Shown here piece after piece: positions 4,501-50,405 of a stretch of 64,000 nucleotides of DNA. Position 1 is the stretch's first letter. Every line of letters starts with the position of its first letter. A model generated the notes under the pieces. It saw nothing but the letters and a program-made list of their open reading frames with translations. It did not search any database and was not told where the DNA came from. Both the position numbers and the translations under genes were made by a program. Origin of the DNA: Somniosus microcephalus (lineage: Eukaryota); the NCBI GenBank assembly GCA_052327205.1, contig CM126234.1:29698001-29762000 (forward strand). Reading direction: 5' to 3'.

Positions 4501-5267
4501 TGATCATTTACTGATCAGAGCTGAAATATTAAGTCAATATGAGCCTGTTGGTGAGGCATTCCTAAGTCCAATTTCTTTAGTTGAAGACCCACTGATCTTA
4601 CATTTGATAATTTTGGTGAATTTTTCTGCATCTCAAAGTGAGGGATATTGGTGCTGGTAACATTTTCTCTTACTCGACACCAAAAATTTAAAACTTGTTA
4701 TAACCATTTCATACAATTTAGTGCTATTATGTGGGCAGATTTTTCTAAAGTATGTATATAATATATATACACATACGTGTTTTTTTGTGGCCATCAATGT
4801 GAGGAATGCAAGTGCTAAGAAATATAACACCGTATCCATATTTGACACTCGAGCTGGGGTTCTCCGCTTCTGTCCTTGCTGCTCGGTGTTCCCCCCCCCC
4901 CCCCCCCCATTAAAGAAAATTGGCAGAAAATCACAGGCTGTTGAGTGCAGAATCCCAGCGCCAGGTGCTCTGAAGAGAGTTGATGCATGGTTTAGATATT
5001 AAATATAACTACACTGCTCCCAACAATATGCCTTAACCCCAACCTCAAATGATTCCTCTGCTGCACCAGTGTAAATGTTTCCATTCCTCATACCAGCCAT
5101 TTTATGTCCTTTAGGTCATACTGCCAGATTATGGGCACTTTTGTGCTATGCACCCATACCTACTTGAAACTGGTTTGCGGCTGCCTACACTAATTTAACT
5201 TGGTATAGTTCAGAGACACAAGTAGTTGCTATGAGCTGCATTTCAAATTCCACTCCCGAGATGAAAT

Positions 5268-6085
5268 AGAAACCTAGAAGATAGGAGCAGGAGTAGGCCA
5301 TTCGGCCCCTCGAGTCTGCTCCGCCATTTAATGTGATCATGGCTGATCATCCAAACTCAGTACCCTGTCCCTGCTTTCTCCCCATATCCCTTGATCCCTT
5401 TAGCCTTTAAGAAATATATCGAACTCCTTCTTGAATATATTTAATGAATTGGCCTCAACTGCCTTCTGTGGTAGAGAATTCCACAGGTTCACCACTCTCT
5501 GGGTGAAGAAATTCCTCCTCATCTCAGTCCTAAATGGCTTACCCCTTATCTTTAGACTGTGACCCCTGGTTCTGGACTCCCCCGTCATCAGGAACACCTT
5601 TCCTGCATCTAGTCTGTCTAGTCCTGTTAGAATTTTATAAGTTTCAATGAGATCCCCTCTCATTCTTCTAAACTCCAGCGAGTACAAGCCCAATCGACCC
5701 AATCTCTCCTCATACGTCATTCCTGCCATCCCAGGTATCAGTCTGGTGAATCTTCGCTGCACTCCTTCCATGGCAAGAACATCCTTCCTCAGTTAAGGCG
5801 ACCAAAACTGCACACAATACTCAAGGTGTGGTCTCACCAAGGCCCTGTACAACTGCAGCAAGACATCCTTGCTCCTGTCCGCGAATCCTCTCGCTACGAA
5901 GGCCAACATACCATTTGCCGCCTTAACCGCCTGCTGCACCTGCATGCTTACCTTCAGTGACTGGTGCACAAGAACACCCAGGTCTCGTTGCACTTCCCCC
6001 TTCTCCCAATCTATTGCCGTTCAGATAATCTGCCTTCCTGTTTTTGCCACCGAAGTGGATAACCTCGCATTTATCCACATTATAG
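5268..6085 (-). mobile_element. CR1 LINE, 5'-truncated
   Basis: ORFs 5400-5771 and 5793-5993 give the CR1 ORF2 C-terminus (RPHLEYCVQFWSP, LEFRRMRGDLIETYKI), followed by the 3'UTR. Near-identical to 20228-21030. Confidence 0.95.
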
Positions 6086-6164
6086 TGCGAATGGGGACGT
6101 GCTAGCCACTATGATGCTGACCCTAGACTCGCCAGCTTTGAAAAGAGGCCGACCGGCGTTTTGT

Positions 6165-6895: not shown

Positions 6896-7837
6896 TTGTG
6901 AATGGCTTTAAACAGGAGATTAATTCAAATGACTGAACAATAATGTTCCCATTTTATGTTTGTGAATTTAATGGCAATCACAGCATTGTCAAATTGTTCC
7001 TTTTTTAATGGTTGAAGTGAAATACCAGTGGGAAATGATAACTAGTCCACAGTTTAGTATTGTGGAAAGGTAGCGGTCCATAAAAAGAGGGCATAGTTTG
7101 AGCCTTTGATGGGGTCCTGTTCATTTCACTTGCATTTAGGCGCAGCATATAGGAGGACCAGTTTGTTGTCCTGTGGCACTGAGGGAATAGGTTTAACTTT
7201 CCCCATGCCACTGTGTTCTTGCCTGCACTGCTGTGTGAAGGCTAAGCTCCTACAGGAGGTTAGATAAATCAGTGAGCCATCCTTGGATCACTTGCCAGCT
7301 CAAGGAGGCCTAGGAGTAAGTTGCCTGCCTGCTTTGGCCAGAGATGGCATGTGGCCCTAAGACACCTTGGGGACTGGATTTTAAAAAGTGATTTAAGCTT
7401 TTCATTCCACTTATATTCAAATAGTGGAGCAGGAAACCTGCTTTGTTTTTAAACCCTACAATTTAACTGCCAAAAGTATGTTCTTAAAATAAAATTCAGT
7501 GTTTCCAATTTCATATTTAATGCTGTGAAAGAATTAGATATGAACTTATGATTACTAAATATTCAGAGAAAACATCAACCCTCCAGACACACTCCAAACG
7601 CTTGTTCAGGTATCAGACCTGTTAAAAGTAGCCAATTCTAATTGCAAAACCATTTATATGGAGTGCTGTGTTTTCTAAAGTGACGTCTGTCAAAATGTCA
7701 CATTTAAAATCAAAATTAGGGATTGCCATTTGGCAAATCATGTTTGGTGTTTACTAGCAACCGACTGGGCCTTTTAGCATTGTCTGCTGCGGTGGAAGGC
7801 GCTTGTGTTGCGCTGCGCCTCTTCAGCCTGGAGTTGC

Positions 7838-8520
7838 TCTTGGCTGGGAGGACCTGGTTGGATGCTCTTTGTCGTGAAGTTACCCTTGACTGGGAGGACC
7901 TGCGTTGAGCCTCTTTGTGTCGGAGCTGTGAGGGAAGGAGCGGAGTCGAGCGGTGCTGTGCTGTATAGGCAAACCCATCCCTGGTTTGTGAGTTTTGATA
8001 CCGGTTAAAGTTTCGAGCTCGGTGAGATGAGTCGAAGATTTTCATGTGTACACACTGTGCGGAGAAGATTGGGGTTTGTTTGTGGGCCGGGGGTCATTTT
8101 AATTTGTAACAGGAAGTCGAGGCCTAAAGGCGCCATTACAGCCTGAAATCCAGGGAGCGCGTTTGAGAGCTTCCCGGTACAACTGCAATCGGCTGGGGCT
8201 GCGGTCGCCGAATCATTTAGCTGGAAAATTTGATTAAAGGTGGATTTAAGACAAAAGTAATCGTCGAATAAAGTGCGTTAGTTGGATGCGTGGCACGCAG
8301 GATAAAACCAGCCGCTTGTGTGGGGGAGGGGTGGGGAGGAGAATTCTGTTTAAAATTTTTTTTATTTTTTTTTACACATTGAAATAATACAATTAATTGC
8401 CGATATTTAAACGGTAATTTTTCTCACACATTTTTGGAATGAGTTTAATCTTGTTTGAGAGACGGCTAGAATTGCCGTTTTTTGGCGCTATGTCGCTCGT
8501 GTATGGGAGGACCTGTTTGC
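7838..8520 (+). promoter_or_regulatory. CpG-rich promoter or 5'UTR exon block of ZC3H10-like copy A
   Basis: CpG-rich. 7838-8230 aligns with 22971-23330, and 8420-8510 with ~28570-28740. Conserved ETS-like CAGGAAGT; donor-like TTT|GTGAGT at ~7988. Confidence 0.6.
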
Positions 8521-9940
8521 TCGTGCTATTTGGAGGAGTGCGTAAAAGAGCTGAACCGTGTATGAACCTGTGTTTTTTCTATCTTTTGTAACCGTTCTGA
8601 CTGTTGATTACTCCGACAGTTTAAATGTTCAGAGTGAAGGTTTAATTCTGTGTTCGTGTGTGTCATGCAGCAGAATGTTGAGGCCTAGCAGTCTTGTGAT
8701 CTGGAAAGCTGTGTCGAAAATGATTGTGTACATTACCGGAAGTGTAAAAATTACTAGAACTCGTATGGCAAGTACAGGAATTGATGAAACTGTCACATAC
8801 ACTGAAGAGTAAAATACATTTTTAGGATGGCAATATGAGTCAGTAAAATATGATAAATCCCCCATTTGTAGAACAAAATAGTGTGCAGAATTAAACTTGG
8901 TAAAAAGCCAAATTTCTTGCAAGCATGGTGACCCGAGCCTGCTGTTGCAGTACTCTGACTATAGGAAAGAGAAGAATCCATGATTTCAGACCTGTCTGCG
9001 CAGCCTGATAAGGAAACTTTGCGATCGGTTGGGAACTCTGCATCCCCAGATTTCTGAGGTCAGGTGCCTCTTGGGCCAGCAGGCCCAAGTCATGCCTACT
9101 GCTGATTCCCATGGAATCACACAAGATATTCCCAATTATTATCACTAGAGCAACTTGACACAGCGAGGGAGACCTGGATTTGAGGGTCTTCACGCTGATC
9201 GGATACTTTACCTTTTTACTAAAATGTTGATTTTTGCAAAACTTATAAAGTGGGTAGTGCTTTAAACGGACTTCTCATTTACGGCTACGTTACTTGTTTT
9301 CTTTTTAATTGTTCTGCCCTGTAAGTTTTTAAAAGAAAAAAAATCATGCAGTATTGGGAGGTCCATGTGCTTCCTGGGCTCATTGATGTTTTTGAGAAGT
9401 TAGTTGTGAGTTGGAGAATGATGGCCATGGGTGACTTCACAGTTTTCCTTTCTAGAGGTGTTGTGCCTACCTGCTGTACAGTGGTACAGCTGAGGTTGGT
9501 AACTTGTGTGGAGGACTGCCATTATGAACTCGTCTAGCACCATTTGTTTGGTGATCTACATATTACATTATTTTTGAGTGCGTTTTAGTGTTTTACCTGT
9601 TATAAGCTTTTCCTTTTGAAAGGAGTGCCAGAAATGATCTGTTCTGGCATGGCCCACATAATTAAATACAATGCTATAAATTGGAAGACTTCATGGACAA
9701 TCTCAAAATACAGAGCAGTGTGCATTTGTTTTTTGCGCACACTATACTTGTGGATCTGACTGATTCATTTGAGAGTTCTGTATTTTTTCACTTGTGCAAA
9801 CAAAAATACAATTGCACAGACTTCTTCGATGCTAATTGTCACTTGATAATGTTGCTACTGCGACTACTCTGAATTCAATGTTTTATGGAATGCGCAACAG
9901 TTACTTTGTAAATGAATCGCTCATTCTCTATAAAGACCTG

Positions 9941-10008
9941 CCTTTTTTTTTCTTTTGCAGTTGCTTGTGTAGCGCCTTGGCTAAACAGCGCAGAAATAAT
10001 CTATAAAA
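9941..10008 (+). other. Splice acceptor (AG 9959-9960) and 5'UTR part of the coding exon, copy A
   Basis: Polypyrimidine tract then TTTTGCAG|TTG. The same acceptor and the CAGCGCAGAAATAATC leader occur in copy B. Confidence 0.8.
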
Positions 10009-10680
10009 ATGCCAGATAACGGCACCGAGGAGGCTGGCCCCAGTACAGATGATATTTGCCGCGACTTCCTGCGCAACGTCTGCAACCGCGGTAAGCGCTG
10101 CAAGTTCCGCCACCCAGACGCTAATGAGATGTCCACCCTTGGCCTTTTATCTTCTGATCTACCCGTTAATAAAGGTGAGATTCCGATCTGCCACGACTAT
10201 CAGAAGGGTGACTGTCAAAGAGGGCCCAAATGTAAGTTCCTGCACGTAAAGCGCGACGAGTATGGTTATGAAAACCAAGGTATGGCGCACAGCCAGGTGT
10301 TTTCCCCCTTGGCACGCAGATATGATCGCTATGATGACCTCTACTCTAGAGGTTATGATGCTGACCACTACGATGGCTACGACACCCACCTGAAGAGGAG
10401 AAGGATGGAGGGCATGGGGTTTGAAGTGTACGACTACGGCATGCAGAATTCAGGCGCAGCTGACTACCGGTTTCTGAAGGAAGAGAATCTCATGCTGCAA
10501 AAGCGCGTTGAGGATCTCCAAAAACAGGTGTCAAACCTGATGGCCACCAATGAGCTCCTCCTGGAGCAGAATGCAAATCTCCGCAACCAAGTGAAGATGG
10601 GAATGATGGCTCCCATGACCCCCATGACCTCTATGACCCCCACACCCAGTGCAGCAGCTGGGAGATTCGCCACCCAGTGA
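10009..10680 (+). CDS. ZC3H10: ZC3H10-like CCCH zinc-finger protein, copy A (two fingers, 223 aa)
   Basis: CRDFLRNVCNRGKRCKFRH (C-x7-C-x5-C-x3-H) matches ZC3H10 finger 1; second finger CHDYQKGDCQRGPKCKFLH; basic LKRRR motif; coiled coil EENLMLQKRVEDLQKQVSNLMATNELLLEQN typical of ZC3H10. Paralog or ortholog status unresolved. Confidence 0.93.
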   Translation: MPDNGTEEAGPSTDDICRDFLRNVCNRGKRCKFRHPDANEMSTLGLLSSDLPVNKGEIPICHDYQKGDCQRGPKCKFLHVKRDEYGYENQGMAHSQVFSPLARRYDRYDDLYSRGYDADHYDGYDTHLKRRRMEGMGFEVYDYGMQNSGAADYRFLKEENLMLQKRVEDLQKQVSNLMATNELLLEQNANLRNQVKMGMMAPMTPMTSMTPTPSAAAGRFATQ

Positions 10681-13889: not shown

Positions 13890-13950
13890 TCTGTTGAGTG
13901 TATAACAATAAAGCAAATTTTCATTTGTGTATTGTTTTGTATTCCTTGTG
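13890..13950 (+). terminator. Distal polyadenylation site of copy A
   Basis: TGTA upstream, AATAAA at 13907-13912, GT/T-rich downstream; context conserved at 39341. Additional AATAAA at 10751, 11641 and 13607. Confidence 0.75.
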
Positions 13951-19600: not shown

Positions 19601-20227
19601 CTTTTTTTAAAAATTAAAGCATTTTAGGAAACCACTGTAGCATCTAGTTCTGAAAGCTGTTGACCATCCACCTTCTAAGGTAAAACAGATTTTGGTGTGG
19701 AGGCAATGAGGCTCTCGTTTATATAAAAAGAACACATACAGGTATACATTTATTGAGCAACCAAGGTGAAGGGTAGTTGAATCCACTTGTTGGCGAGGAA
19801 AAGAGTCAATAAGTAGTGATTAGGTTGATACCAAGCTTGGGATTTAAAAGCCTTTAGATGTAAGAAAAAGGAACAAATGTGGCCCTGGGAAGGAATGAGG
19901 AGCCTTGATGTGCAGGGTTACATCAATGGAACAAGCGATGAAGGTGAAAGTAGTAAGATTATGACAACAAAATAAAGTAACTGAAGAGACCAGAAGGAAC
20001 TTTTTATAAAGAAGATTTTCATTGCTCCATTAAAGAATATGAAGATCAAGATATAGTGGTTGCGCAATGAGGACATGCATCTGAAAGAAGTTGAGTGTTG
20101 AATGGAATATTCAGTCATGGATAAGATTGAATGTTGAGTGGAAGAGGCCTTTAATGTGGGGGGAAGAGAGTGGGAGGGGAAAAAAGGTTTAAATCACTGA
20201 AGATATGAAACTAGTAAGGCAGTAAGA

Positions 20228-21408
20228 GAAACATAGAAGATGGGAGTAGGCCATTCAGCCCCTCGAGCCTGCTCCGCCATTTAATGAGATCATGGCTGAT
20301 CATCCAAATTCAGTACCCTGTCCCTGCTTTCTCCCCATATCCCTTGATCCCTTTAGCCTTAAGAAATATATCTAACTCCTTCTTGAATATATTTAATGAA
20401 TTGGCCTCCACTGCCTTCTGTGGTAGAGAATTCCACAGGTTCACCACTCTCTGGGTGAAGAAATTCCTCCTCATCTCAGTCCTAAATGGCTTACCCCGTG
20501 TCCTTAGACTGTGACCCCTGGTTCTGGACTCCCCCGCCATTGGGAACATCCTGCATCTAGTCTGTCTAGTCCTGTTAGAATTTTATAAGTTTCAATGAGA
20601 TCCCCTCTCATTCTTCTAAACTCTAGTGAATATAAGCCTAATCGACCCAATCTCTCCTCGTACGTCATTTCTGCCATCCCAGGTATCAGTCTGGTGAATC
20701 TTCGCTGCAATCTCTTCATGGCAAGAACATCCTTCCTCAGATAAGGCGACCAAAACTGCACACAATAGTCAAGGTGTGGCCTCACCAAGGCCCTGTACAA
20801 CTGCAGCAAGACATCCTTGCTCCTGTACTCGAATCCTCTCGCTATGAAGGCCAGCATACTATTTGCCGCCTTAACCGCCTGCTGCACCTGCATGCTTACC
20901 TTCAGCGACTGGTGCACAAGGACACCAAGGTCTCGTTGCACTTCCCCTTCTCCCAATCTATTGCCGTTCAGATAATCTGTCTTCCTGTTTTTGCCACCAA
21001 AGTGGATAATCTCCCATTTATCCACATTATACTGCATCTGCCCAATTGCCCAACCTGTCCAAATCGTACTGGAGTTTCTCTGCATCCTCCTCACAGCACA
21101 CACGCCCACCCAGCTTTGTGTTGTCTGCAAACTTGGAGATATTATATCGAGTTCCCTCATCTAGATCATTAATATATATTGTGAATAGCTGGGGTCCTAG
21201 CACCGATCCCTGCGGTACCCCACTAGTCACTGCCTGCCACTCGGAAAAAGACCCGTTTATTCCAACTCTGCTTCCTGTCTGCCAACCAGTTCTCTATCCA
21301 AGTCAGTACCTTACCCCCAATCCCATGTGCTTTAACTTTGCACGCCAATCTCTTATGCGGGACCTTATCGAAAGCCTTCTGAAAGTCCAAATACACCACA
21401 TCCACTGT
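20228..21408 (-). mobile_element. CR1 LINE, 5'-truncated
   Basis: [37 protein letters not shown] and KFADNTK RT motifs, with frameshifts. Confidence 0.95.
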
Positions 21409-22970
21409 GGTGTATAACCTTGTATGTTAGATTAGTTGGAGGAACGAGAGAAAATATACTGAACAATTTTGTTTTTGTGTAGCATTAGGTTGTATATTTT
21501 CATTTGCTTTGTACTCCAGTGAAGTTTCTTTCTACAGAGGAAGGAAGAAACTGGAAAACTACGCGTCAAGCCCTTCTTGGATATCAAAAATGTTGATGTT
21601 CCTCTGAAACCTATTATGTTTTTGCATGCAATCCTCTCCTATGAGAGTCTGTTGCGCTGCTGCTTCTAAACAATTTTCCAGTGTATAGGCTCTTCTGATG
21701 GCCACAGTTTTGCTAATCTCTGTTACATTCAACCAGAGCTAGGTTTGAAGCCATAGGGAGCAAGGAGTTGGTGTCATTGGTCCAGAAGCTTGAATCTTGA
21801 GTTTAGTTGTTGCCTTTTGAAGTAGACATTGGGGTCTTCAAGTCTAAGTTCCTGGTGAGAAATACAGCAGACCGTGGTCAAGTTTTCAGCTGTGAGATGG
21901 AAGTATAGAAAACGGGAGTGTTTTTTTGTGTTTCTGCATTATTTTTCTATACCCTTCCTCTCCTGAATGTGAGCTTAGGCATGTGTTGATCAGCTATTGA
22001 ATCATGAGGGCATCGCCTGTTCTTGTATGCTTACAGTAGATGACAATCGGGAGTGGAAACCCAGATCAGATTTTAATTTCCCTAGCCTGAGAACTGGGGC
22101 TCATGTTAGCACCTGCAGCGGCACAGCAACAGAGATTGGTTAGGATTGCAACATTTTGGAAAATCTAAGACTGGACAGGCTAAAAGTGGGATCCTGGCTC
22201 GAGTTCTTATGTTTGTTTTGCTGCTGATAAATTCATTGAAAATCTTAGTAACCATAATAACTAATGCCTCCACATCAGAAGACACGCATGAGTAAAAGTA
22301 GGGGACTGTGCAATGAGTCTTGATTTTAACACTTTGGGGATGCAAGGCGGGGAAGAACATGTAGAACGGAGTATCTGACTGTAGAATTAAGTTGCGAGGC
22401 ATACTGACCATATCAATAAAATAGAGAAAGGTAAGGAAACTTGCAACAGAGAGGGTGAGATTGGAGGCTACAGGTGAGAGTGAGATCACCTATCCAATGA
22501 CCATCTTCAGACTTTTTAAACCTAAGCTTAGTATCAACTCATCACTACCCCCTGATTTAGCTCGATTTTTCTTTACAACCTTGCTGGTAGCCCCAGTTTG
22601 GTCTTGGCCCCTTTACTGTAGTTTCTCATTTTAGAAAAAGTAATGGGGGGGGGGGGGGGGGGTGGAATTGACTTTGACCTCAAGTTTTCACTTTTAGAAA
22701 GCACCAGAAACACCATTCAAAAAATGGATCGGTCTAAAACCTAGGTGAAGTATTGGAGGGTGCTCCCTGCTCATAGAACCATCCCCCAATGAATCAGCTT
22801 TAGAAGAGAAGGGAAGAAAATTGAGTTTTTAACTTTTACCTTCAAAATTCACATATCTTGGTGCTTCTATTTAGCTGCATAATTTTTAATTGTTTTTGAA
22901 TTCACAAAGAAATTACATACTTTGCATAAAATATAAGATTTTAAATTAATGGTGAGTGATTTTAACAGTT

Positions 22971-23330
22971 TCTTGTGGTTGGGAGGAGCTCGTTAATGCC
23001 ATTTGTGAAATTACCTTTGACTGGGAGGACCTCCATTGAGCCTCTTCGTGTTGGAGCATCTTCGAGTTGGAGCTACGAGGGAAGGAGCTGAGCTATGTTG
23101 GTAATCCCATCCCTGGTTTGTTAATGTTAAAGTTCTGGGCTCTGGGATTATTTTAAGATTTTATTGTACACACACTGAATGCAATAAGTGTGGGTTAGTT
23201 TGGCTGGCAGTCACTTTAATTTGTAGCAGGAAGTCGAAGACTTAAAAGGCCTGGGAGAATGCTGGAGCGGTTCCTTGTACAGTATGTAAAGTGGAACGAC
23301 TGGTGCTGCAATCACCCAGGCTCATTGGAA
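22971..23330 (+). promoter_or_regulatory. Paralogous upstream block of ZC3H10-like copy B
   Basis: Aligns with 7838-8230 (TTGACTGGGAGGACCT, CCCATCCCTGGTTTGT, TTTAATTTGTA.CAGGAAGTCGA). Confidence 0.65.
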
Positions 23331-32228: not shown

Positions 32229-32545
32229 GGCAAACAACTAACAGATCTGTGTCCGTGACTATAAGCAAAATCAGTGCCAGTTCTGGATAGCACTAGCCAT
32301 GCGCAAAAAAAAAAAAATGGAATAATTATAGCAATATCTTGGCAAGCAACCAACTAACAGATCTGTGCCAGTTCTGGATAGCACTAGCCATGCGCAAAAA
32401 AAAAATGGAATAATTATAGCAATATCCTGGCAAGCAACCAACAGATCTGTGTCAGCGGCTATGAGCAAGAGCAGTGCCAGTTCTGGAGATAGCACGAGTC
32501 ATGCGCAAAATAAAAATGGAATAATTATAGCAATATCCTGGCAGC
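32229..32545 (+). repeat. Three-copy tandem repeat (~85-110 bp units)
   Basis: Core GTGCCAGTTCTGGATAGCACTAGCCATGCGC(A)nTGGAATAATTATAGCAATATC[CT]TGGCA three times, each preceded by AACAGATCTGTG. Confidence 0.9.
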
Positions 32546-33097
32546 TATGAGATCGAGTCCCTTCTATAAACATGCTTGCTAATCCACCAGTTATTGGCAA
32601 AATAAAAGCAATACCTTAGTCCAGTGGTGTCGGTGTTTGAGTGACCTCACAAGACAGTTTACTGTGTGTTATTTCTGAGTGAGTGAGTAAGTGCCTGGTC
32701 AGATCACTCAAGACATTTACACCACTGGCACTGAAATATGAGAGTAAGTTCAGTGCTCTCGGCAGGGGACCACGTTCAAAAGAAGCGCAGGTTGCAGCTG
32801 TATAGTACTGATTCTTGAACCTAAGCTTCCTTGGAACAGGAGGTTGTGAATTTATCCCATGGTTTTTATGTGCAATAAATCAAGACACATGTGAATGTTA
32901 ATGCATTTATTTCTATTTGGATTATCACCATATATAATCTGCAATAAGATATGCTGCTGCCCTGAAACATGCTCCACAGAGTGCTGGTCTGGGTAATTTA
33001 CAGAAACTTGGTGATTTCTTATTGTTTCACGACCTTTCTTTTGCTGTTGGGTTGTTCTGGCACTGCAGGTGATCAAATCATGTGACATGGTGGGCCC

Positions 33098-33512
33098 ATG
33101 AGTCAGAGGTTGTGGGTTTGAGCCCCACTCTCTGGCTTGAGCACATAATCTAATCTGACACTTTAGTGCAGTGCTGAGGGAGTGCTACATTGTCAGAAAT
33201 GGCATCGTTTGGATGAGATAAACTGAGGCCACAGCTGCCTGTTCAAGCGGGTGTAAACGACTCTATTGCATAATTTGAAGAGATGGGGATTTATCCCAGT
33301 GTCGTGGCCAACATTTATCCCTCATCAAACACCACCAAAAACAGATTATCTGGCCATTTGCTGTTTGTGAGACTTTGCTGTGCGCAAATTGGCTGCAGTG
33401 TTTGCCTACAAAACAACAGTGACTACAACTTCAAAAGCAATTCATTGGCTGTAAAGCGCTTTGGGACATCCTGAAAGCATGAAAAGCGCTATATAAATGC
33501 AAGTTTTCTTTC
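33098..33512 (+). mobile_element. SacSINE1-like (Deu-domain) SINE
   Basis: Collinear with the full copy at 61776-62277; tail GCGCTATATAAATGCAAG. Confidence 0.85.
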
Positions 33513-35527
33513 AATGGTGTTATATCACATGATTTGGAGAATTATTTCACCAACCAGGTTACAGGAGAATATTGTTGCTTCTGTGTATATTGTGATATTT
33601 TACACACTTTGTGTCAGATGATAAGAATAATTGTCATTTTTTCAACTGAGAAATAAAAGGAAAATCAACTTTTCAACTTAAAATATCACGATCACAGTGT
33701 ATCGAAATGTCCGCCTGCAGAAAGGGGTCAACGCCTCCTGCTGCTTTCCCAGTTCCACGTACAGGCATTTATCATTCACTCAGGTCACCAAAGTTTAAAC
33801 AATTTAAATAACTACTCTTAAAAATGATGATAGGTATAAGACAATAATTCAATTGAGCAGATCTTCTGTTATAATAAACCAGCAGAGATAATGTAAGAGT
33901 TGTTGACTGCCAGAAGAACCCCCAAGGTTGAGTGGAAGTCTTAAAGTTGTCATCAATTCTTTGCAGTAACTCCTCATAACTGAGTGACACAGTGCATTGG
34001 TATCATCTATGAGGCACTGCCTCTGGACAGCCATGCAAGCCACAAACCTCTTACCTTGGAGTTGAGAGATGGAGGTGGTATGGTCTAGGTGAAAATATAA
34101 TGCCACTGCATTGTACAGAGGAACAGTAGGTAATGAATTTAGTCCCATGTTTTTTGAGGTGTTTTCCTTACAGAGAGGCGTGAGAGCTATCCTTCTCTGT
34201 GAGGAAATGGTGCATGGGGGAGGGAGAAAGGAAATCAAATTGGTGATGACATAGGACCTAGAATTAGATGGCTTTGTTCAAAAGATTCCATTATAATTAT
34301 TATTTTTGTGTGTTTTGCAGTTTCCATCTCGGCTGCATGCCCTCTGTTACCTCAAACTGGGAAAACAGTTCAAATTGCAGCCTTAATTATTAATAGTTTG
34401 TCTTCCTCTGGGTGCTGTGTTGTGGCCCGTTTTGAGGGTAAGCTGTGAATCTTTCCCATACTTCTTAAGTGCGCCTCCTGGCGGCTCCACTGAAGAATGG
34501 CATTGATTCTGCTGATAAAGTAGTGCATAGGCTTGATCCTCCAAACTCCAAGAGAATAACATGCTCAGCGGAGGAGAAGGAACACCGTCCAAAATACATC
34601 TCTATAAATAGGGCAGTGTGTCATTTTTAGTTGATAGAGAAGTGTTTTTACTTTTTTCATACTTTCAGGCTGCCTAGGCTAACCACATCCTTTTACGTTT
34701 TCAGCCTGTATATTATGATGCTGAACCAAACCCTAATATTACAATAATAAGGATAATTAAATGTCATTTTATGAACTTAGAAAAATAAATGCCTAAAACA
34801 ATTTAAAATAAAATATTTATAAAAAAAAACTTCTGCCCAACCTGTCTTTGATTTTTAGCTCCTTTTTTTCTTTGACCCTTTCTCCCTCAGTCTGCTATTT
34901 TCATTATTTTTATTTGAATTATTTTTCCATCTAATCCAACCCAATCTTAAAAATGAAAGTATTGCGCTTAAAACGTATTTAACTTCTGTCTCACACAGAA
35001 TCACAGAAACCCCACAGTGCAGATAGAGGCCATTTCCTGGGTCTCGCCACCCGCTTGGGAAGTGGGAGCCAAATCCCAATAAAATGGTCCTTGGCTAAGA
35101 ACAGGATTCAGTGGCTGTTTTTTCAGCCAGTTGAGGGTCATAAATATCACCATGTGCATTTTTGCTACAATTTTCTTGTGTCAAATACAGGAGCCCACTG
35201 CTCGATTAAATTATACCAACAGCTGGGAAGTGAGATCACACCCTGATGAGACAACTTGGCACCACACAAAATGGCTAATATTGACGTTATTGAAGCCTCA
35301 TGCAAACACCTTTCTTAATGCTATCGCTTTTACAAAACAAGGCAACTAATATACATAAAAAGAGTGCTTACAATTTGGTAGGAGATCTTTCACACTCTTG
35401 GGATAAACTTGTCACCCACTCCTCGTTGTGTATCCTCGATTAAGTCACCTTTGGGTGGGATTTTTTGGGGGTGGAGCGAAGATGACCCACGCTTACTTTG
35501 TGGTCGGTCCCTTTTTCTCTGACATGA

Positions 35528-35580
35528 TTCATTCTTCTTTTGCAGTTGTTTGTTGAGCAGCGCAGAAATAATCGGTAAAA
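35528..35580 (+). other. Splice acceptor (AG 35544-35545) and 5'UTR part of the coding exon, copy B
   Basis: TTCTTCTTTTGCAG|TTG, homologous to the copy A acceptor; contains GCAGCGC at 35557-35563. Confidence 0.8.
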
Positions 35581-36420
35581 ATGGCAGACAATAATGTTGT
35601 TAACAATGGCAAAGACGGGGCTGGCCAGAGCACGGAAGACGTTTGCCGGGACTACCTGCGCAATGTCTGCTATCGCGGCAAGACCTGCAAGTACCTCCAC
35701 CCGGACATAAATGAGGTACATGACCTAGGCGTGAAAAAGAATGAGTTTGTCTTCTGTCATTACTTTATGAATAATGTTTGTACCCGTGCAAAGTGCACAT
35801 TCATACACGGGACAGCAGAGGATGAGGAATACTACAAAAAAACAGGGGAGCTTCCCCTGCACTTGCGCTCCAAGGTGGCTGAAACCTACGGTCTGTCAGT
35901 TTCTGACCTACCTGCTGATAAAGGTGAGATTCCAGTATGCCGTGACTACCTTAAAGGTGACTGTCAAAGAGGCTCAAAATGTAGATTCCGGCACTTCAAA
36001 CGTGACAATTCAGAACATGAAATCAGACTGTCACGAGACCCCCCACTTTCTCAGCCATTGCGTAAATCTGATCGAGTGGATAATGACAGTGGCATCAATT
36101 GTTATGAGTATGACCACCGCTTGAAGAGGAGAAAGTTGGAAGGGTTTGAGTTTGAAGTGTACGAGTACGATCTCACAAGTCGACGGCCAGTTGACTCCGG
36201 ATACCTGGAGGAGGAGAACCTTATGCTGCGAAACCGGAATGAGGAACTCAAAAAGCAGGTGTCCAATTTGATGGGCAACAATGAGGTGCTTCTGGAGCAG
36301 AATGCGTTTCTCCGCAACCAAATAAAGACAGCAATGGTGAACTCCTTGCCCACAACGACAACTGGGAGATTCAGCCACTGCACTTCCCCAGGGGTTAAGA
36401 CCAGGGGACTTTGGGAGTAA
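35581..36420 (+). CDS. ZC3H10: ZC3H10-like CCCH zinc-finger protein, copy B (three fingers, 279 aa)
   Basis: Three CCCH fingers with ZC3H10 linkers (LGVKKNEFVFCH, EDEEYYKKTGELP, DLP..KGEIPVCRDYLKGDCQRG); LKRRK; coiled coil LEEENLMLRNRNEELKKQVSNLMGNNEVLLEQN. Confidence 0.95.
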   Translation: MADNNVVNNGKDGAGQSTEDVCRDYLRNVCYRGKTCKYLHPDINEVHDLGVKKNEFVFCHYFMNNVCTRAKCTFIHGTAEDEEYYKKTGELPLHLRSKVAETYGLSVSDLPADKGEIPVCRDYLKGDCQRGSKCRFRHFKRDNSEHEIRLSRDPPLSQPLRKSDRVDNDSGINCYEYDHRLKRRKLEGFEFEVYEYDLTSRRPVDSGYLEEENLMLRNRNEELKKQVSNLMGNNEVLLEQNAFLRNQIKTAMVNSLPTTTTGRFSHCTSPGVKTRGLWE

Positions 36421-39324: not shown

Positions 39325-39390
39325 GGTGAGTGTATTTAACAATAAAGTAATTTTTCACTTATTAAGTGCATTGTCTTTTTATTCTTGCAC
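39325..39390 (+). terminator. Distal polyadenylation site of copy B
   Basis: TGAGTGTATTTAACAATAAAG (AATAAA 39341-39346) matches TGAGTGTATAACAATAAAG in copy A; T-rich downstream. Confidence 0.75.
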
Positions 39391-40092
39391 AATGTGCACA
39401 GATCAGAGCAGGGTAGAATTGGTGTTCAGCTCACCCAGAGCTACTCATGTGCAGAATTGGCAGGAACCTGAGTGCAGATCTGCCCTTTTGGCTGAGAAAT
39501 GCCTAGGGACATTTTCAGGTAGGGGAAGACAAGAAATTTCACTGAAATTAATTTGTTTCACATGTCTGATTCGAAAGGAGACGCTACATAAACTACCTGT
39601 CCTACGTAATCAAGAGATCAACAGGTGATTCTGAGAGTCACTTTTACTTGAAGATTCTTGTATGATTTAAATATATTTGAGACTAGTCAAATATTCAGGA
39701 TGTTGGGTGTGTTTGAAAATATTGCCTTGATTGACATGTCTTACATGTGACTTTTTGTACTCATCAAGGTGGGAGATGTTAGGATTAAAGATTGAAACAA
39801 TCCCATTCTAGGCACCCAGTGTCTCAAAATCAAGCAAGCCCCTTGTCAGGTACAGCTACAGAGTAAAGCTTTTTCTACTCGAGGTTTTCAAACTTTTCAA
39901 TGTAGCAAAGTGTTGCAAATATTGACATACCCAAGGACCACCGGCCCCAAACCTAGCATCCAAAAGAGTGTCAGCTACCCAAAGGAAATGGTTATCATTG
40001 TAGCAAATGCACTTATTAGTGTTCAGTGACACAAATAATGTGCTAGTAAGTCACAAATAGAGAAATCTGATGACCTTGTGGGCCCTGGTATT

Positions 40093-42320
40093 GGGCCAGA
40101 AATTCCAGGCCAGAAGCGTGAGTACGGTCGGGTTACTCACGCATCTGGCCGTTGGAAATGCCGGCGTTCAGCAGGAACAGCGCATGCGGGGAACGCTGGC
40201 ATTTCCAGACCCGAGGTCTATTCACAGCGCGTGCGACTGCACAGGCAGCGCTTGCGCAGTGAACTTTGTAGATTTCACTGATGGATTCAGTGAGGGTAAG
40301 TCCCTAGAACTTACACGTGAAAAAAGCAAGTGTAAAGTTGTTCATTGGCTGGGGAAGGAGATATATTTTATGGAGGAGCTTATGAAATGCAATATTTAGG
40401 TTTGGGAAAGGGAGGGAAGTTATTTTAAGAAATTTTAAGTAAGTTTTAAACTTTAATTTTTTTTTTTTTTTAAACGGATTTTCAGAACGGTAGGTAGAAG
40501 GAGCAATTGTGGCTGTGTGAATGGAATGTGAGAATGAGTTATGTATGTATGTCCACATATATTCCTTTACGTATATGTATGTATGTTTTATATTCCTTTA
40601 CTAATGTGTATGAATGTATGTTTTTAATTATGATTTTCCAATAAGTTACTTTCTCTGAAAGTCATAATTAAATAATACATTCATACACATAAGTAAAGGA
40701 ATATATACATAACACGCAAAGGAATATATACAGACATACATACTTTCAGAAGCTCCACGATAATAAATATCTTCCTCTGGAGCAACTGTACCCATGCTTT
40801 TTGCATGTGTAACTTGTAATGACTTGACCTCACTGAAAGCATTAATGAAAGCGGCGAATTATACTGCGCACGCAGAGGACAGGAAATGCCGGTTTTCCCC
40901 ACATGCACTGTGCATGCTGAAAACCGGCATTTCATCCAGCCAGATGCGTAAGTACCCCGACTGTACTCGCGCATTTGGAAGGGAATTACTGGGCCAACAT
41001 TTTACATGTCAATAAAATGAAAAATTTAACAATTGCACGACTTGCCCCCTCGCATCTGCGACTGAGGGTCCAAGGAGGTGCATTGCGCAAGAGGTCATCA
41101 TCGTACGTATCCTCACACTGTTCCCTTTGGGGAACTGTATGAAGTGGTGGAAGGATTTATGGCCGTGATTAACGCTCATTCCGTGACCGTAACCATCTTT
41201 GAACCAGCCATTAGGGTGGTTAGTCCTATGGCGGGAGGGTTTTACGGGCTCCCACAACCCATCTGAGGGGGGGGGGGGCCACCAACACCCACGGACGCAA
41301 GTATCCCGCTGGATGTCCACCCAGAATTTAAAGTTGGAACTCCGACTCCACTTGCCGGGACTGTCTGGAGTGGGGTTCAAAACCCTACTCCTTCTGGCCC
41401 AGCGGCGGGGATGCTTACTGCTACGCAAAAGGCCCACTCCGCACAAAAGGTGACACCCATACGTTTCCTGCGCCTTTTCCCTCCCCGTGACTGGAGCCCT
41501 ATGCTGCCATTTCACGTTGCTAATCGGATTGGGCCTTTGTCATAGCGGTAGGATCCCCGCCGCTGGGCCAGATCAGGGTAGGGTTTCGAACCCCGCTCCA
41601 GACAGTCCCGGCAAGTGGAGTCGGAGCTCCGGCTCTAAATTCTGGGTTGACATCCAGTGGGATATTTGCGTCCGTGGGTGTGGGTGGCCCCCCCTCCTTG
41701 TATAGCTTGTGGGAGCCCGTAAAACCCTCCCGCCATAGGACTAACCGCCCTAATGCCTGGTTCAAAGATGGTTACGGTCACGGAATGAGCGTTAATCATG
41801 GCCATAAATCCTTCCACCACTTCATACAGTTCCCCAAAGGGAACAGTGTGAAGACACGTATGACGACGACATTGCTAAATAAATAAATGGAATTTAAAAA
41901 ATTCTTTTAGGGCTTTTAAAAGTCTTTAAATTGCTTTAATTCTGTTTAAAACTACTTCAGATTACTCAAAATAATGTAAACATTTTAAAAAGTTTATGAA
42001 AGTTACCAAAATCTTCAGAAAACTTCCAAAAACCTATTTAAACTGCTGCTTTGCATGTAAAAATGGTTAGCAGCTTGACAGAAACATTGGGGGCGTGTCC
42101 AGTGAAACTGAGACCTCAAGGGGCGTGTCTCACTTGCACTGCACGCTCCTGACTTCGCGCTGGCTGCACTCCTGGGCGGCGTGACGTCATACGCTGCCCG
42201 GGATTCTTCTTCTGGAAACACCAATTCCAGGCGTCCCTGGAGCTGATCGGCAGTAGCGCGGGGTAAGTGTAAATACGGGGCTTGCACACGCTGCAAGCCC
42301 CGTTCTGGAATTTCTGGGCC
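40093..42320. mobile_element. Composite non-autonomous TIR element (possibly PIF/Harbinger group) with foldback structure
   Basis: ATT|GGGCCAGAAATTCCAG ... CTGGAATTTCTGGGCC|ATT: TIRs match at 15/16 with a 3-bp ATT duplication. An internal third end lies at 40995, whose ~250 bp arm is the inverted homolog of 40093-40390. No transposase. Confidence 0.75.
41094..41870. repeat. Long near-perfect inverted repeat (arms 41094-41441 and 41525-41870, 83-nt spacer)
   Basis: Direct reverse-complement comparison of the arms; 41113-41207 pairs with only one G-T opposition. Confidence 0.95.
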
Positions 42321-42379
42321 ATTACCTTGCAGGCCTCTCAGATAGAGGCTGATCAGAGGTTGGGGCTAATGAGTATCCA

Positions 42380-45500: not shown

Positions 45501-47532
45501 TTGTTTTTACTCATTGGTTGTCTTGGAGTGGGAACAAGAAGTCTCGGAGCAGGGCTGCGGTAAAAATAAGAAACCGCGCTGCAGATTCCAAACTGCCCAT
45601 TAGCATCTCCACCAGATATCTCCCAATATTTTTTTTAAAAATCTGGGTGAGATGAATTAAAACTTAACTTCCTTACCCTGCTACTAGCTTGTCATCATAG
45701 ACATGTAAGATTTCACAAGAATGAAAAAGCTACAGATCCCCTAATCTGGTGTTCCTTTTACGGATACAGATATATTTTTCTATGCACACAGATTAACTGT
45801 TTAATTGATTTTGTTTTTTAATTACCATACTAAAGTTTTTCCCCCTTTAGCTACTCCCAGGCCACCGTGCATACTATCCCTGACCACACAGGCACGCCTG
45901 TGATCAGCTTCCAGTCCTCTGCTATTGCATTTCTGTAACTGAAAGTGGGAGAGTCATTGGAGTTGAGTTGCATTGTTTTTTTTTAAATGTCTTCTCCTGG
46001 GAAAGCCTCAGTTGAGATCAAGAGTCGCAGATTAACTAAAACTGGAACTTGTGATCTTTGTTACCATTCATGAAATCATGTCCCTGTTTACACTGTCACT
46101 TATTTTGAGGGTTGAATACATTTCCCTTTCAGTTAACAAAAAATGCTGTGGGAAAATTAAACTACATAATCACCAGACAGGATTGTGTTGAAACAGGATC
46201 TCTCCATAATATCAGTGCAGTCCCAGGATGAGCAATCTTTCATCTTCAAGTGTGGTGTAACTAAAGCAGGAATGTGCCAAGTTTTTTTTATTACCTTTTG
46301 TGAGCTACATCTGGATACCATTGAGCCTCGGGGCTCTGTATAAAGTTTAAACTCATGTTTGCATTAATTTGCAGATGTATCATGTTGCTGATACTAACAG
46401 ATTTTGGTGTTCTGATTTAGGATTTATCCACCATTGAGGTAACAGCGCTGAAAACGGCACTTTCTAAATCTCCAGGTATCCAAAATTCAAGCAGGACAAA
46501 CCCAACAAGTAAGAAATATTAGCGCAAATAGAGCTGAATTTTGAGGTCGGACTACCGGGGCTCGGTAGTTGCAATTGACCCACTTGCCATAATTTGTACA
46601 TCTCAACATTAAGAGCTGCTATGATGTTTCTGTTCCAAAAGCAAAAAAATCGGCTGGATTTTTATGAACTTACATGATTCGGTAAGGACAAAAGTCTTTG
46701 TGTCATGTACTGAAAGTAACCAATTATCTCAATTTAAATTATATATAGGCGTCTTCTACCCTCCGCCCCCCCCCCCCCCCTTCCTTTTTAGGTTCCCAGG
46801 CCAAGATGACGGGCAGGCACTGGTCCCTGGCCTCTGCTAATGTTAATAAGCGGCTACTAGGAAGTGCGCCAAAACAGGAGGATTCGCTTAATTTGTTTTC
46901 TTTCTCTCTTCCCACCACCCCTCCCCCTGCCCAGCTTCAGTTCAGTGCCTCGCCCCATGAACCCAACTGAGATTGTGGGCATTCTTCACATTGTTCTAAT
47001 TATATTTGCTAATGTGCTTTGCTCTAATTATATTTTATAATGATGCTTTAAGTGATTTCAGCTGTGGAAAAGGTTGCTTATGTTTCAACATTTGTCATAC
47101 AAATACATTGGACGGTATGTGACCTATCAAGCCCTCCAGTAATGCTGTTCCATAACAAGCCACTGGGGGGAGCAGGTTAACTATTGCTCCAAATTTTCCT
47201 TCCCTTTTCAGGGCAAAAGGCTTGCCTGCTCAGGTAGCCTGACTGCGATCAACAACTTAACTGTAGAAAATTGAACTGTGGACCCTACCCCTCTTTTTAT
47301 ATAGAGTGGCAGCACAGCACTATGCAGTACCATCTCATTTCTGTATATTTTTAATATTCTGAAAAGATTTTGTATTTATACTTTTAAGGACGTGCAACAC
47401 CACTCGAGATATGAATATTTTATTTCTCCAAGGTGCCAATGCTGCAGCTATTTACAGATGAAGGTATGAACTGGATAAAGGACTTCCAAGTGGTGGATTA
47501 CTGAGCATACCTTTTCAGGTTAAAGCATTATG

Positions 47533-47892
47533 GGTCAGCTTGGATCAGCTGGTAGCACTTTAGCCTGAGTCAGAAGGTTGGCGGTTTGAGCCCAACTCCA
47601 GTGCAGTACAGAGGGGGTGCTGCATTGTTGGGGGTGCTGTCCTTTTGATGAGTGGATATTGAAGATCCCATGGCACTATTTGAAGAAGAGTAGGGAGATG
47701 GCCAGGCCAACGTTCCTCTCTCCGCCAACACCACCAAAAAAAAAAATCAACTGGTCATTCATCTCATTGCTGTTTATGTAATCTTGCTGTGTGCAAAATG
47801 GCTGCTGCATTTGCCTACATAATAACAATCACTGCTGTTCAGAGTAATTCATCGTATGAGGCGTTGGCGCTATATAAAATGCAACTCTTTAT
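47533..47892 (+). mobile_element. SacSINE1-like SINE, internally deleted
   Basis: tRNA-like head, GATCCCATGGCACTATTTGAAGAAGAG core, and tail. Confidence 0.85.
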
Positions 47893-50405
47893 TTCAGCTG
47901 ATACACTGAGGTTTAAAAATCACCTCATTACATAGAATATTACATAGAACGTTCAGCACAGAAACATTGCTGAGATCTCCAGTATATTATCTAATAATAC
48001 TATATAACATTAATATATATTAAACCATTATGAAACTGTTACTCTGTGCTGTCTTGTCTTTTTCCTCCCCATATTCTCCATATTATCTTTAATTTATATA
48101 TTGTCTTTCTATTTTATCATTTAGTTTTGTATAAACTGCAATAAAACAGAATATAGATATAAGAAAGAATTGTCTAGTTTTATCTAGTAAATGTACCTGT
48201 TTTCCTGTGGCTCTGTGACTTGTCTATTTTGGAGCAGGCACCACACTGTTTAAAATCCATCCTAAGGCTGATTTTTTTAGCAGAGTGGGAGACAGATCGT
48301 TGGAGTCTGATCTGACCGGGTCTGAGTGAAGGATCAAAATTTTGATGTTTTTCAGCTGACTGCTTACGCCAATAATTGCAAAGCTCCCAGCAAGATAATT
48401 ATTAGCAGCCAAGGTAAGAGCATGCGCAGAAAGAAAATATTTGATCATTGGAATTCTGAGGGTTAAGCACAAAAACTGAAACTCTCATACCTTATTTATA
48501 GTCACAAATGGAAGACAAATTGCCAGAAAAGGGGATTAAGTGGCTCCTGTTTGCAGCTGTCTAGCAAATTTAGTGCATTCATTGGCGGCATTGAATTTAA
48601 ATAAATAGAACATGGCATGTTGCAAGCTGTTCTGCATAGATCCTTTCACCAAACTAATAGCGATGAGGAAGCTCTGAATCTTTAAGAGCTGCTGGAAGGC
48701 ATTACCTGGAGCAAGTATGAGAACATGCACTCATATCCAAGGCTCAGTGCCTACCATGATTGGGTTGTAGAGAGACAGGTGGCTGCTGCTGACGCTCTGC
48801 AGCCCCAACTGGTGGAACCACCATTTAATGGGACATGATGTGTGCTCATGCTATGGTCCGGAGAATTGTGGGAATGCACTAATACAACTTGTACTGAATT
48901 ATGCTGCTCACCACATTGCTTGTGAGGAGTTACTGGTACTTGCTATCTGCCTTGTGAAGGCTTATCAGTTGCTTATTGCCCAACCAGTGACTTCTATTTG
49001 GGGAGGGAGGGAGGGAGGAAGGTAAGCAGGGTCTCCTTGTGGACTGAGTTGGCTCCAAGATAACATGCCTGATGATGGAAGATTGGAACCAAGTCAGTCA
49101 TCTGGTGGATACCTTTGCCAGGCTGGCCCACAGTGCTCCAGGGCACTAATGGTGATTGACCAGCCAGTCTGGCTCATTAATGGGACCTGTAGGGGTTGGC
49201 CTCTCATTCGGGTCTGGGATGCTTCCCATCCAGCTCCTACAAGTAAATGGCTTAATGGGTAGGGTGGTCCCTGCTGGTAAGGCAATGGAAAGCTTACTAG
49301 TGTTCTGTTCTAGTAAACTGTGCAGTTTTAGCTGGTTAAAATCCAACTGCCTTGCATGCACTAAGGGTTGCTAAGCATTGGCTCTTGCCAACCTGTGCCT
49401 AAGCTCTTTGGATGTAGGTAAGTGGGATGTATCCTCGGATTTTACAGAAAAGCAAATTAGAGAGGCGTGTTCGATTACCTGCATGAAGACAAAAAGTGAT
49501 TGTAACAATTATCATTTGATAACTTACTATTTTAGAATTAATTGAATAACTACTTTTAGAACTGAGGGATCATTCTCCACAATATCTCATCAGTGATGGT
49601 AAGACCCAGAACATTATTTGACGTCCAAAAAAGTGTTTAACCCTTGCAAGGCTCAGGAGTTACGGGATTTTTACATATACATGAAAACGCATGGACAACT
49701 TGCTCTCTTTGGTGTTTTTCTAATTAATAATTTATGTCCCAGATAAGTGATTGAGTTTGTTTTCCCAGTGGAACTGCTTTTTAACCGCCTGTATGCACTT
49801 GCTTGGTTTGTCAGCTCATAAAGCCTGCCCAATATAAGCTCGCCTCATCTGTTTTGCTCGTATTGTTCTGTTCTCTGTCTTTGGTTTTCTGCGTTCTCTT
49901 TTCAGCCCTCTATTTGATTATCCACCTCATTCTGCTCTTTCCTATCAACTTAAAGTATACTCTTTCCTTGCTACGCTACCATTTATCTGCTTCTTGCCAC
50001 TTTCTTGTACATATGCCTCTGTGTATGAATCTTATTTTTCTTTTCCAGGGCCTTGACTCCTGCTGGGATACAACTCCATGGCCACCACCGGCTCTCCAGT
50101 ATCTTGCCCAAATGAGAATTGTCCATGTATGAGACGGTGAGTATTGGCAGGCTGTTTGAACTTGGGATAGCACAGCACAAACCGATCCTGTCCTAACCCA
50201 ATATTCACCGCAAGCACATACCTGCAGGGTTATGGATATCGATAAGAAGCCAGAACCCTGACTCTTATCTCACCCCTCCTTAATGCATATTGTGTAAGTT
50301 GGCTGTTGTGTTTGCCTATATAACAGTGACTGCACTTCAAAAGTGATCCATTGGTTGTAAAGGTCTTTGGGAGGTCCTGAGGACGTGATAATAAGGTGCT
50401 ATATA

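Follow-up and report, generated by a model that had tools for sequence, protein, structure and literature searches.

A long inverted repeat in Somniosus microcephalus very probably consists of two tRNA-headed SINEs lying head-to-head in an older MITE

What is the long hairpin that lies downstream of a ZC3H10-like gene in Somniosus microcephalus? It is found in a 64,000 nt stretch of contig CM126234.1 (assembly GCA_052327205.1, positions 29,698,001 to 29,762,000), here called the window, and a first-pass annotation had described it as a near-perfect, CpG-rich inverted repeat inside an element with terminal inverted repeats (TIRs), with arms of ~350 bp and an 83 nt spacer. This geometry was borne out: the arms are 41094–41441 (348 nt) and 41525–41870 (346 nt), the spacer is 41442–41524 (83 nt), and the whole is enclosed by TIR ends, 40093 on the left and 42320 on the right, with ATT/ATT flanks. 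The predicted fold has a minimum free energy of -672 kcal/mol, and 0/20 shuffles were as stable. In the alignment of the arms, 314/344 paired columns (91%) are identical, 30 are mismatched and a further 6 columns are gaps. With 34 difference events in 350 columns, 4 of them indels, the hairpin is not near-perfect. A ~95 bp stretch reported to contain a single G-T opposition is present (41113–41207, with the G-T at 41165/41799), and the arms are, as had been stated, more alike than those of the host element, which are 78% (197/254) and 66% (102/154) identical.

Of the 30 substitutions between the arms, 21 are transitions and 11 of these are of the CpG type (7 decayed in the left arm, L, and 4 in the right arm, R); 13 CpGs are intact in both arms. 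As decay has occurred in both L and R, it points to the ageing of methylated genomic DNA and not to an assembly palindrome. The CpG content, which had been singled out as high, is not exceptional here. The observed/expected ratios of the arms (0.63 and 0.74) are under those of the host MITE parts (0.87 and 0.78) and of 777 nt windows in the most CpG-dense zone of the window, 7600–8900 (0.81–1.12), with three older SINE copies at 0.32–0.54.

The features described below led us to conclude that the hairpin is very probably made up of two separate ~347 nt SINEs, each having a head derived from a tRNA plus a bipartite RTE-type tail, that sit head-to-head in one arm of an older MITE (Table 1). Such a pair would most likely correspond, in a fish, to the inverted Alu pairs of human DNA, and so be mostly ordinary.

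Table 1. Coordinates of the hairpin components and host element, as interpreted here
Feature	Position	Strand	Remarks
Putative SINE copy L	41094–41441	-	~348 nt; 5′ head at inner end, tail at outer end
Putative SINE copy R	41524–41870	+	347 nt; 5′ head at inner end
Outer candidate target-site duplication, copy L	41086–41093		pairs with 41442–41449, 6/8; extended 9/11
Inner candidate target-site duplication, copy L	41442–41449		partner of 41086–41093
Inner candidate target-site duplication, copy R	41516–41523		pairs with 41871–41878, 7/8; extended 9/10
Outer candidate target-site duplication, copy R	41871–41878		partner of 41516–41523
Probable tRNA-derived head, copy L	41358–41428	-	A box 41428–41418, B box 41383–41373; 2+2 mismatches to consensus
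Probable tRNA-derived head, copy R	41538–41608	+	A box 41538–41548, B box 41583–41593; 1+1 mismatches to consensus
RTE 5′-UTR-like core, copy L	41156–41187	-	motif match
RTE 5′-UTR-like core, copy R	41777–41808	+	motif match
3′ stem-loop (8+6 bp), copy L	41111–41144	-	followed by trinucleotide tail ending 41094
3′ stem-loop (8+6 bp), copy R	41820–41853	+	followed by trinucleotide tail ending 41870
Near-identical block	41113–41257		145 nt; 3 differences from partner 41707–41851; spans RTE-like part
Spacer core	41450–41515		probably host MITE left arm; first 45 nt also resemble copy L tail
Host composite non-autonomous TIR element(s), tentatively PIF/Harbinger-like	40093–42320		left end 40093; right ends 40995 and 42320; ATT on outer sides
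Right arm of second MITE unit	41983–42320		partner of SINE-bearing arm

The inner ends of the arms resemble the heads of other SINEs in the window. When a profile of the four SINE heads found elsewhere was run over the 64 kb, the next matches after its four training copies were the two inner ends, both read outward (copy L: E 0.0014, 0/1000 shuffles; copy R: E 0.45, 3/1000 shuffles). Pairwise scores between arms and SINE heads were higher outward than inward in 8/8 comparisons, and copy L read outward is identical to the SINE head at 61779 at 41/67 ungapped positions. The reverse search, using a profile of the two arms, returned no window SINE head at E<10. In both copies the best matches to the A- and B-box consensus fall at nt 15 and 60; in a joint test of the two boxes, 3/300 shuffles equalled copy R and 131/300 equalled copy L, which is not significant. 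A profile of 21 short-arm tRNAs picked from two named records matched three of the four window SINE heads (E 1e-4, 0.014 and 0.41), scored copy R weakly (equalled by 15/500 and 13/500 shuffles) and missed copy L, and neither Rfam nor default ARAGORN found a tRNA in the arms. The tRNA origin of the heads is therefore argued in two steps, via the window's other SINEs. A cloverleaf reading inward in copy R, obtained with relaxed ARAGORN settings, was dropped, having been equalled by 20–38/1000 shuffles. The earlier statement that the hairpin matches nothing else in the window thus holds for blastn and fails for profile searches.

These other SINEs, at 33060–33515, 47530–47900, 53695–54135 and 61775–62280, are SacSINE1-like copies with tRNA heads that are 75–82% identical to one another and older than the pair studied here; headless pieces are also present. 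By eye, the one that starts with the head at 61777 corresponds to the SacSINE1 sequence given in the PMC5786205 supplement. Together with the LINE fragments, the four copies suggest a cartilaginous-fish genome. SacSINE1, a shark Deu-SINE (PMC5499810, in part), has a homologous tRNA-derived head, but its body and L2-type tail are unlike the arms. With an arm profile, the body and tail of the arms had no match elsewhere in the window, including the SacSINE1-like copies, and no Deu body or L2-type tail was seen in them. The element is therefore not SacSINE1, and an assignment to the Deu-SINEs was rejected.

At the outer ends, both copies share a 14 bp stem-loop that was equalled by 4 and 0 of 1000 mononucleotide shuffles, respectively. 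Three motifs from hagfish RTE-2/RTE-4 and their SINEs each have two matches in the window, solely in the arms and on the outward strand, with the 5′-UTR motifs preceding the 3′-end motif in each arm. The 3′-end 15-mer, lying 24 nt from the terminus, agrees with the end of hagfish RTE-2 at 12/15 positions. Chance expectations were 0.94 for this 15-mer, 0.17 for a 9-mer and 0.00 for the gapped 5′-UTR core (0 in 100 shuffles), but as the motifs were picked by eye from some forty published families and the gaps of the core pattern were fitted, these values are optimistic and the match is a lead, not proof. Judged on these tails, the SINE pair was probably mobilised by an RTE element.

Elements of comparable architecture are known. 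tRNA-headed SINEs that end in pieces of an RTE 5′-UTR and 3′-end include SINE2-1_EBu, SINE2-9_EBu and SINE2-10_EBu of hagfish, CoeSINE4 of the coelacanth and HaSE1 (PMC7245038 and PMC5786205, in the parts covered). They share with the arms the tRNA head, the 5′-UTR-like and 3′-end-like pieces, the stem-loop and the trinucleotide tail, but just short motifs agree, and the middle ~110 nt of the arms has no UCON3, Deu, Meta or CORE domain that is clear by eye. In the same sources, many duplications around hagfish RTE-SINEs start with the same two bases, overlapping the tail, which is possible in both copies here; they are ~17 bp long, compared with 8–11 bp in the hairpin. The repeat unit of the tails is absent from the covered portions of the Kojima supplements (PMC5786205 and PMC7245038).

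The differences between the copies are unevenly spread. A 145 nt outer block has 3 differences, compared with 34 in 350 columns overall (p 0.00035 by permutation), and this contrast led us to weigh whether the outer 145 nt had been homogenised later by gene conversion between the arms, an event compatible with two insertions. The duplications, with 3 changes in 16 nt, also lie nearer to the rate of the 5′ part than to that of the block. However, the block coincides with the RTE-like part, which is nearly unchanged among related hagfish SINE families while their heads differ. In addition, two of its three differences are CpG decays, and the differences outside it are clustered like subfamily marks. 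We therefore favour shared constraint, and the block is most likely a constrained RTE-derived part carried by two subfamilies. Gene conversion, which the first-pass annotation had proposed for the arms as a whole, is a less likely though sizeable possibility for the block and does not account for the remainder of the arms.

If the copies inserted separately, each should be bounded by its own target-site duplication. The direct repeats around L and R are unlike in sequence, and both are in register with the ends of the alignment. Compared with random 8-mer pairs from the window, the chances of repeats this good are 0.0056 for L and 0.0006 for R at the exact register, 0.027 and 0.003 when a shift of +-2 is allowed, and 9e-5 jointly. 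In a free scan of 5776 combinations of boundary and length neither duplication reached significance by itself (best nominal p 1e-4 and 3e-5), and their weight as evidence comes from a register that was fixed by the alignment ends.

An empty site was then modelled by deleting both arms and one copy of each direct repeat from the stretch 41073–41951. The product is collinear with the reverse complement of the host right arm, 41983–42150, with a score of 58 that was reached in 0/2000 target shuffles. The score fell to 35.5 when the spacer was also deleted and to 37.5 when it was reversed. Under stricter controls, 97/3000 constructs with the spacer shuffled in place, 64/3000 with random 74-mers and 150/3000 with the left flank shuffled did as well; leaving copy L in gave a score of 60, compared with 58 when both copies were removed, and alignment across either insertion junction alone was not significant. 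These data weakly suggest that deletion of both arms restores the symmetry of the host MITE, and modestly favour a spacer composed of host DNA, better backed on the right than on the left.

Given the marginal evidence at the left junction, and given that the copies are separated by 83 nt and that the 64 kb holds no others, a single SINE insertion might have been followed by a local inverted duplication, via template switching or break repair, with the second direct repeat arising by chance. The duplicated segment would then have had to match the SINE ends exactly, with no flank, and the direct repeats of the two arms differ; we consider this improbable. The overall geometry also recalls a single foldback DNA element, i.e. 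a MITE with ~350 bp TIRs nested in the host, and a 6/6 direct repeat (41081–41086 and 41870–41875) does surround the whole hairpin. This repeat, one among the 5776 combinations, puts the left end 7 nt beyond the arm, the arms end in trinucleotide tails and not in transposon termini, and SINE heads and separate duplications lie inside, making such an origin very improbable.

A captured viral or coding fragment that then underwent inverted duplication was suggested by two antiparallel frames that are nearly open across an arm. However, open frames of such length are present elsewhere in the window, and no match was found in Pfam, the PDB, 1.84 billion representatives, a word-indexed set, phages or plasmids. 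Three frames or frame parts were put to the large searches or to Pfam in full. For the inward frame, 41057–41545 (stops read as X), Pfam gave 0 matches, 0/429 longer candidates matched, there were 0 matches among the 1.84 billion representatives, and the PDB returned a low-complexity match alone (best E 0.012); a coding origin was rejected. For the outward frame, 41524–41883, 0/11 candidates matched. A control frame from the commoner window SINE was also without match (0/2 candidates), so the protein negatives say nothing about copy number. Searches of phages and plasmids with blastn found just 27–28 nt AT-rich matches outside the arms. A captured fragment is thus scarcely credible. Of the first-pass proposal of a young captured foreign sequence, the transposon derivation survives; both arms are full SINE-like units, each bounded by a duplication of its own, and no viral or coding homology was found for them in the collections searched.

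Long hairpins are prone to assembly and library artefacts, but the 9% difference between the arms, the CpG decay on both, the four indel events and the separate duplications leave a palindromic artefact with almost no credence. Hence neither of the mundane readings that the first-pass annotation had set against its own, a foldback MITE or an assembly artefact, holds, and another ordinary explanation does.

Other element classes were also considered and rejected. Rfam gave 0 matches at gathering score in the window; the 14 and 2 weak matches at E<=10 included no tRNA and no ribozyme, and a retroelement bearing a hammerhead or HDV-like ribozyme was dropped. In DIRS-like elements an internal region is closely complementary to the element ends; here the spacer repeats the left end directly (64%), with less similarity to the right end. 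On their general features, DIRS, Helitron, hAT and Vingi elements were set aside, as no matching termini were present. The portion of PMC13708176 covered holds nothing on duplications.

Two SINE copies thus remain the preferred reading. Considered as SINE2 elements, each has a tRNA-related head whose A and B boxes are spaced as in tRNA, direct resemblance to tRNA being weak, its own target-site duplication (6/8 and 7/8) and a structured 3′ tail ending in a simple repeat, with neither TIRs nor coding capacity. The window contains two copies of the family, both in this hairpin. Following established SINE biology (in part PMC3747384), a master copy elsewhere would have been transcribed by Pol III from the A and B boxes, and the protein of an RTE-clade LINE would have recognised the 3′ stem-loop, each copy then being integrated by target-primed reverse transcription. 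Each insertion would have left an 8–11 bp duplication, the two lying ~75 bp apart in opposite orientation, and both copies would then have been methylated and lost CpGs. The hairpin would be a by-product of the two retropositions.

The host itself is tentatively a PIF/Harbinger-type MITE. Elements of this superfamily have short TIRs and a 3 bp duplication (PMC9179366, in part), and the host has short TIRs and flanking ATT/ATT at 40090–40092 and 42321–42323. It differs in having three TIR ends and no transposase nearby, and its better-matching right end, 40995, is followed by AAC. As Harbinger was not detected in the elephant shark according to the covered portion of the same source (PMC9179366), the label remains tentative. 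The arms of the unit 40093–40995 are 78% identical and enclose an AT-rich inner palindrome (40543–40743) with sub-threshold matches to miRNA-type Rfam families, and a degenerate TIR start is possibly located just left of 40093.

The last 43 nt of copy L (41097–41139) match the upstream flank of its target (41453–41495) at 25/43 positions without gaps (p 3e-5 by shuffling). Of 127,920 positions, three unrelated ones equalled this score, and with the duplication included 0/2000 shuffles did so. Chance is an unlikely source of this likeness, even allowing for the several junctions inspected; a remnant of an older, related tail, coincidence and a preference for certain targets are all conceivable sources. 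A shark SINE family not yet described, together with its RTE partner, might prefer this MITE family and so produce head-to-head hairpins, with the likeness between RNA tail and upstream DNA aiding target choice. The copy L match and the location of both copies in one MITE arm speak for such targeting; against it, no such likeness was found between the copy R tail and its own flank, and a stable RNA–DNA hybrid would require more than 58% identity. We regard targeting as a doubtful proposition. A matching shark SINE or a SINE that targets MITEs was not found in the limited literature covered. If the family does target MITEs, the locus would gain in importance as an example, open to test, of a SINE for which a different transposon serves as a safe haven.

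In the human genome, head-to-head Alu pairs have been described as a class and are enriched at spacers of 24–36 bp, and inverted pairs less than ~100 bp apart are prone to form hairpins (PMC3215922 and PMC5080714, in the parts covered). The pair described here likewise has two full-length SINEs with outward tails and a short spacer, from which read-through RNA would form a long duplex. It differs in SINE family and LINE partner, in its 83 nt spacer, in being nested in a MITE and in its position past a likely polyA site. In mammalian 3′ UTR reporters, inverted SINEs were edited and lowered expression independently of ADAR and Dicer, according to the covered part of PMC5080714.

The first-pass annotation had anticipated long dsRNA from the hairpin, through read-through past a polyA site at 39341. 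The gene at 35581–36420 is ZC3H10-like (CCCH fingers; nearest Atlas cluster ZC3H10, score 0.96). An AATAAA is indeed present at 39341, 1753 nt upstream of the hairpin; of the eight such hexamers that follow the stop codon it is number four, and another four lie between it and the hairpin. The segment around 39341 resembles that containing hexamer 13907 of a second ZC3H10-like gene, copy A (E 2e-4), and it is therefore a plausible polyA signal. The 3′ regions of the two genes (10000–10680 and 35572–36420) share four similar segments extending to 3 kb past the stops and including the signals at 13907 and 39341, and neither protein has an exact-sequence entry in the protein collection. To give dsRNA, Pol II would have to read through 1.75–2.5 kb past the polyA signal and four further hexamers. 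Such read-through RNA would be nuclear and short-lived.

Copy R, which has no internal T4 run and a first downstream T4 at 41905, could be transcribed outward by Pol III; copy L contains two T4 runs, one of them in the B box. The putative Pol III promoters of the copies diverge, and their RNAs would be of the same sense and carry one arm each, so these RNAs could not pair. Long dsRNA is thus to be expected if one transcript spans both arms, and not from separate Pol III transcripts. ZC3H10 has a role in pri-miRNA processing, and the first-pass annotation had connected the hairpin, via Dicer or ADAR, to its ZC3H10-like neighbour. We found nothing beyond proximity to recommend this link, as four hexamers intervene and the SINE promoters diverge.

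The locus serves as a worked case: what looks like a clean long hairpin in a fish may turn out to be a pair of retroposons. It points to a SINE mobilised by RTE in a cartilaginous fish; in the literature covered, shark SINEs carry L2 or CR1 tails. Retroposition is known to yield inverted SINE pairs as a by-product, and the hairpin has little import as it stands; evidence of editing at this locus in read-through RNA from the ZC3H10-like gene would raise its importance.

Some further features of the window were noted. The most CpG-rich stretch, 7600–8900 (observed/expected ratio to 1.12), lies upstream of copy A of the ZC3H10-like genes and is possibly a promoter. Within it, 7832–8131 is 71% identical to 22967–23250, possibly a duplicated remnant. 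LINE fragments, which we take to be CR1-like, are present at 5265–6088, 20224–21035 and 55850–57142; the first pair share 93% identity, and a 430 aa open frame persists in the third. An 88 bp tandem duplication is located at 32270–32442, with 94% matches.
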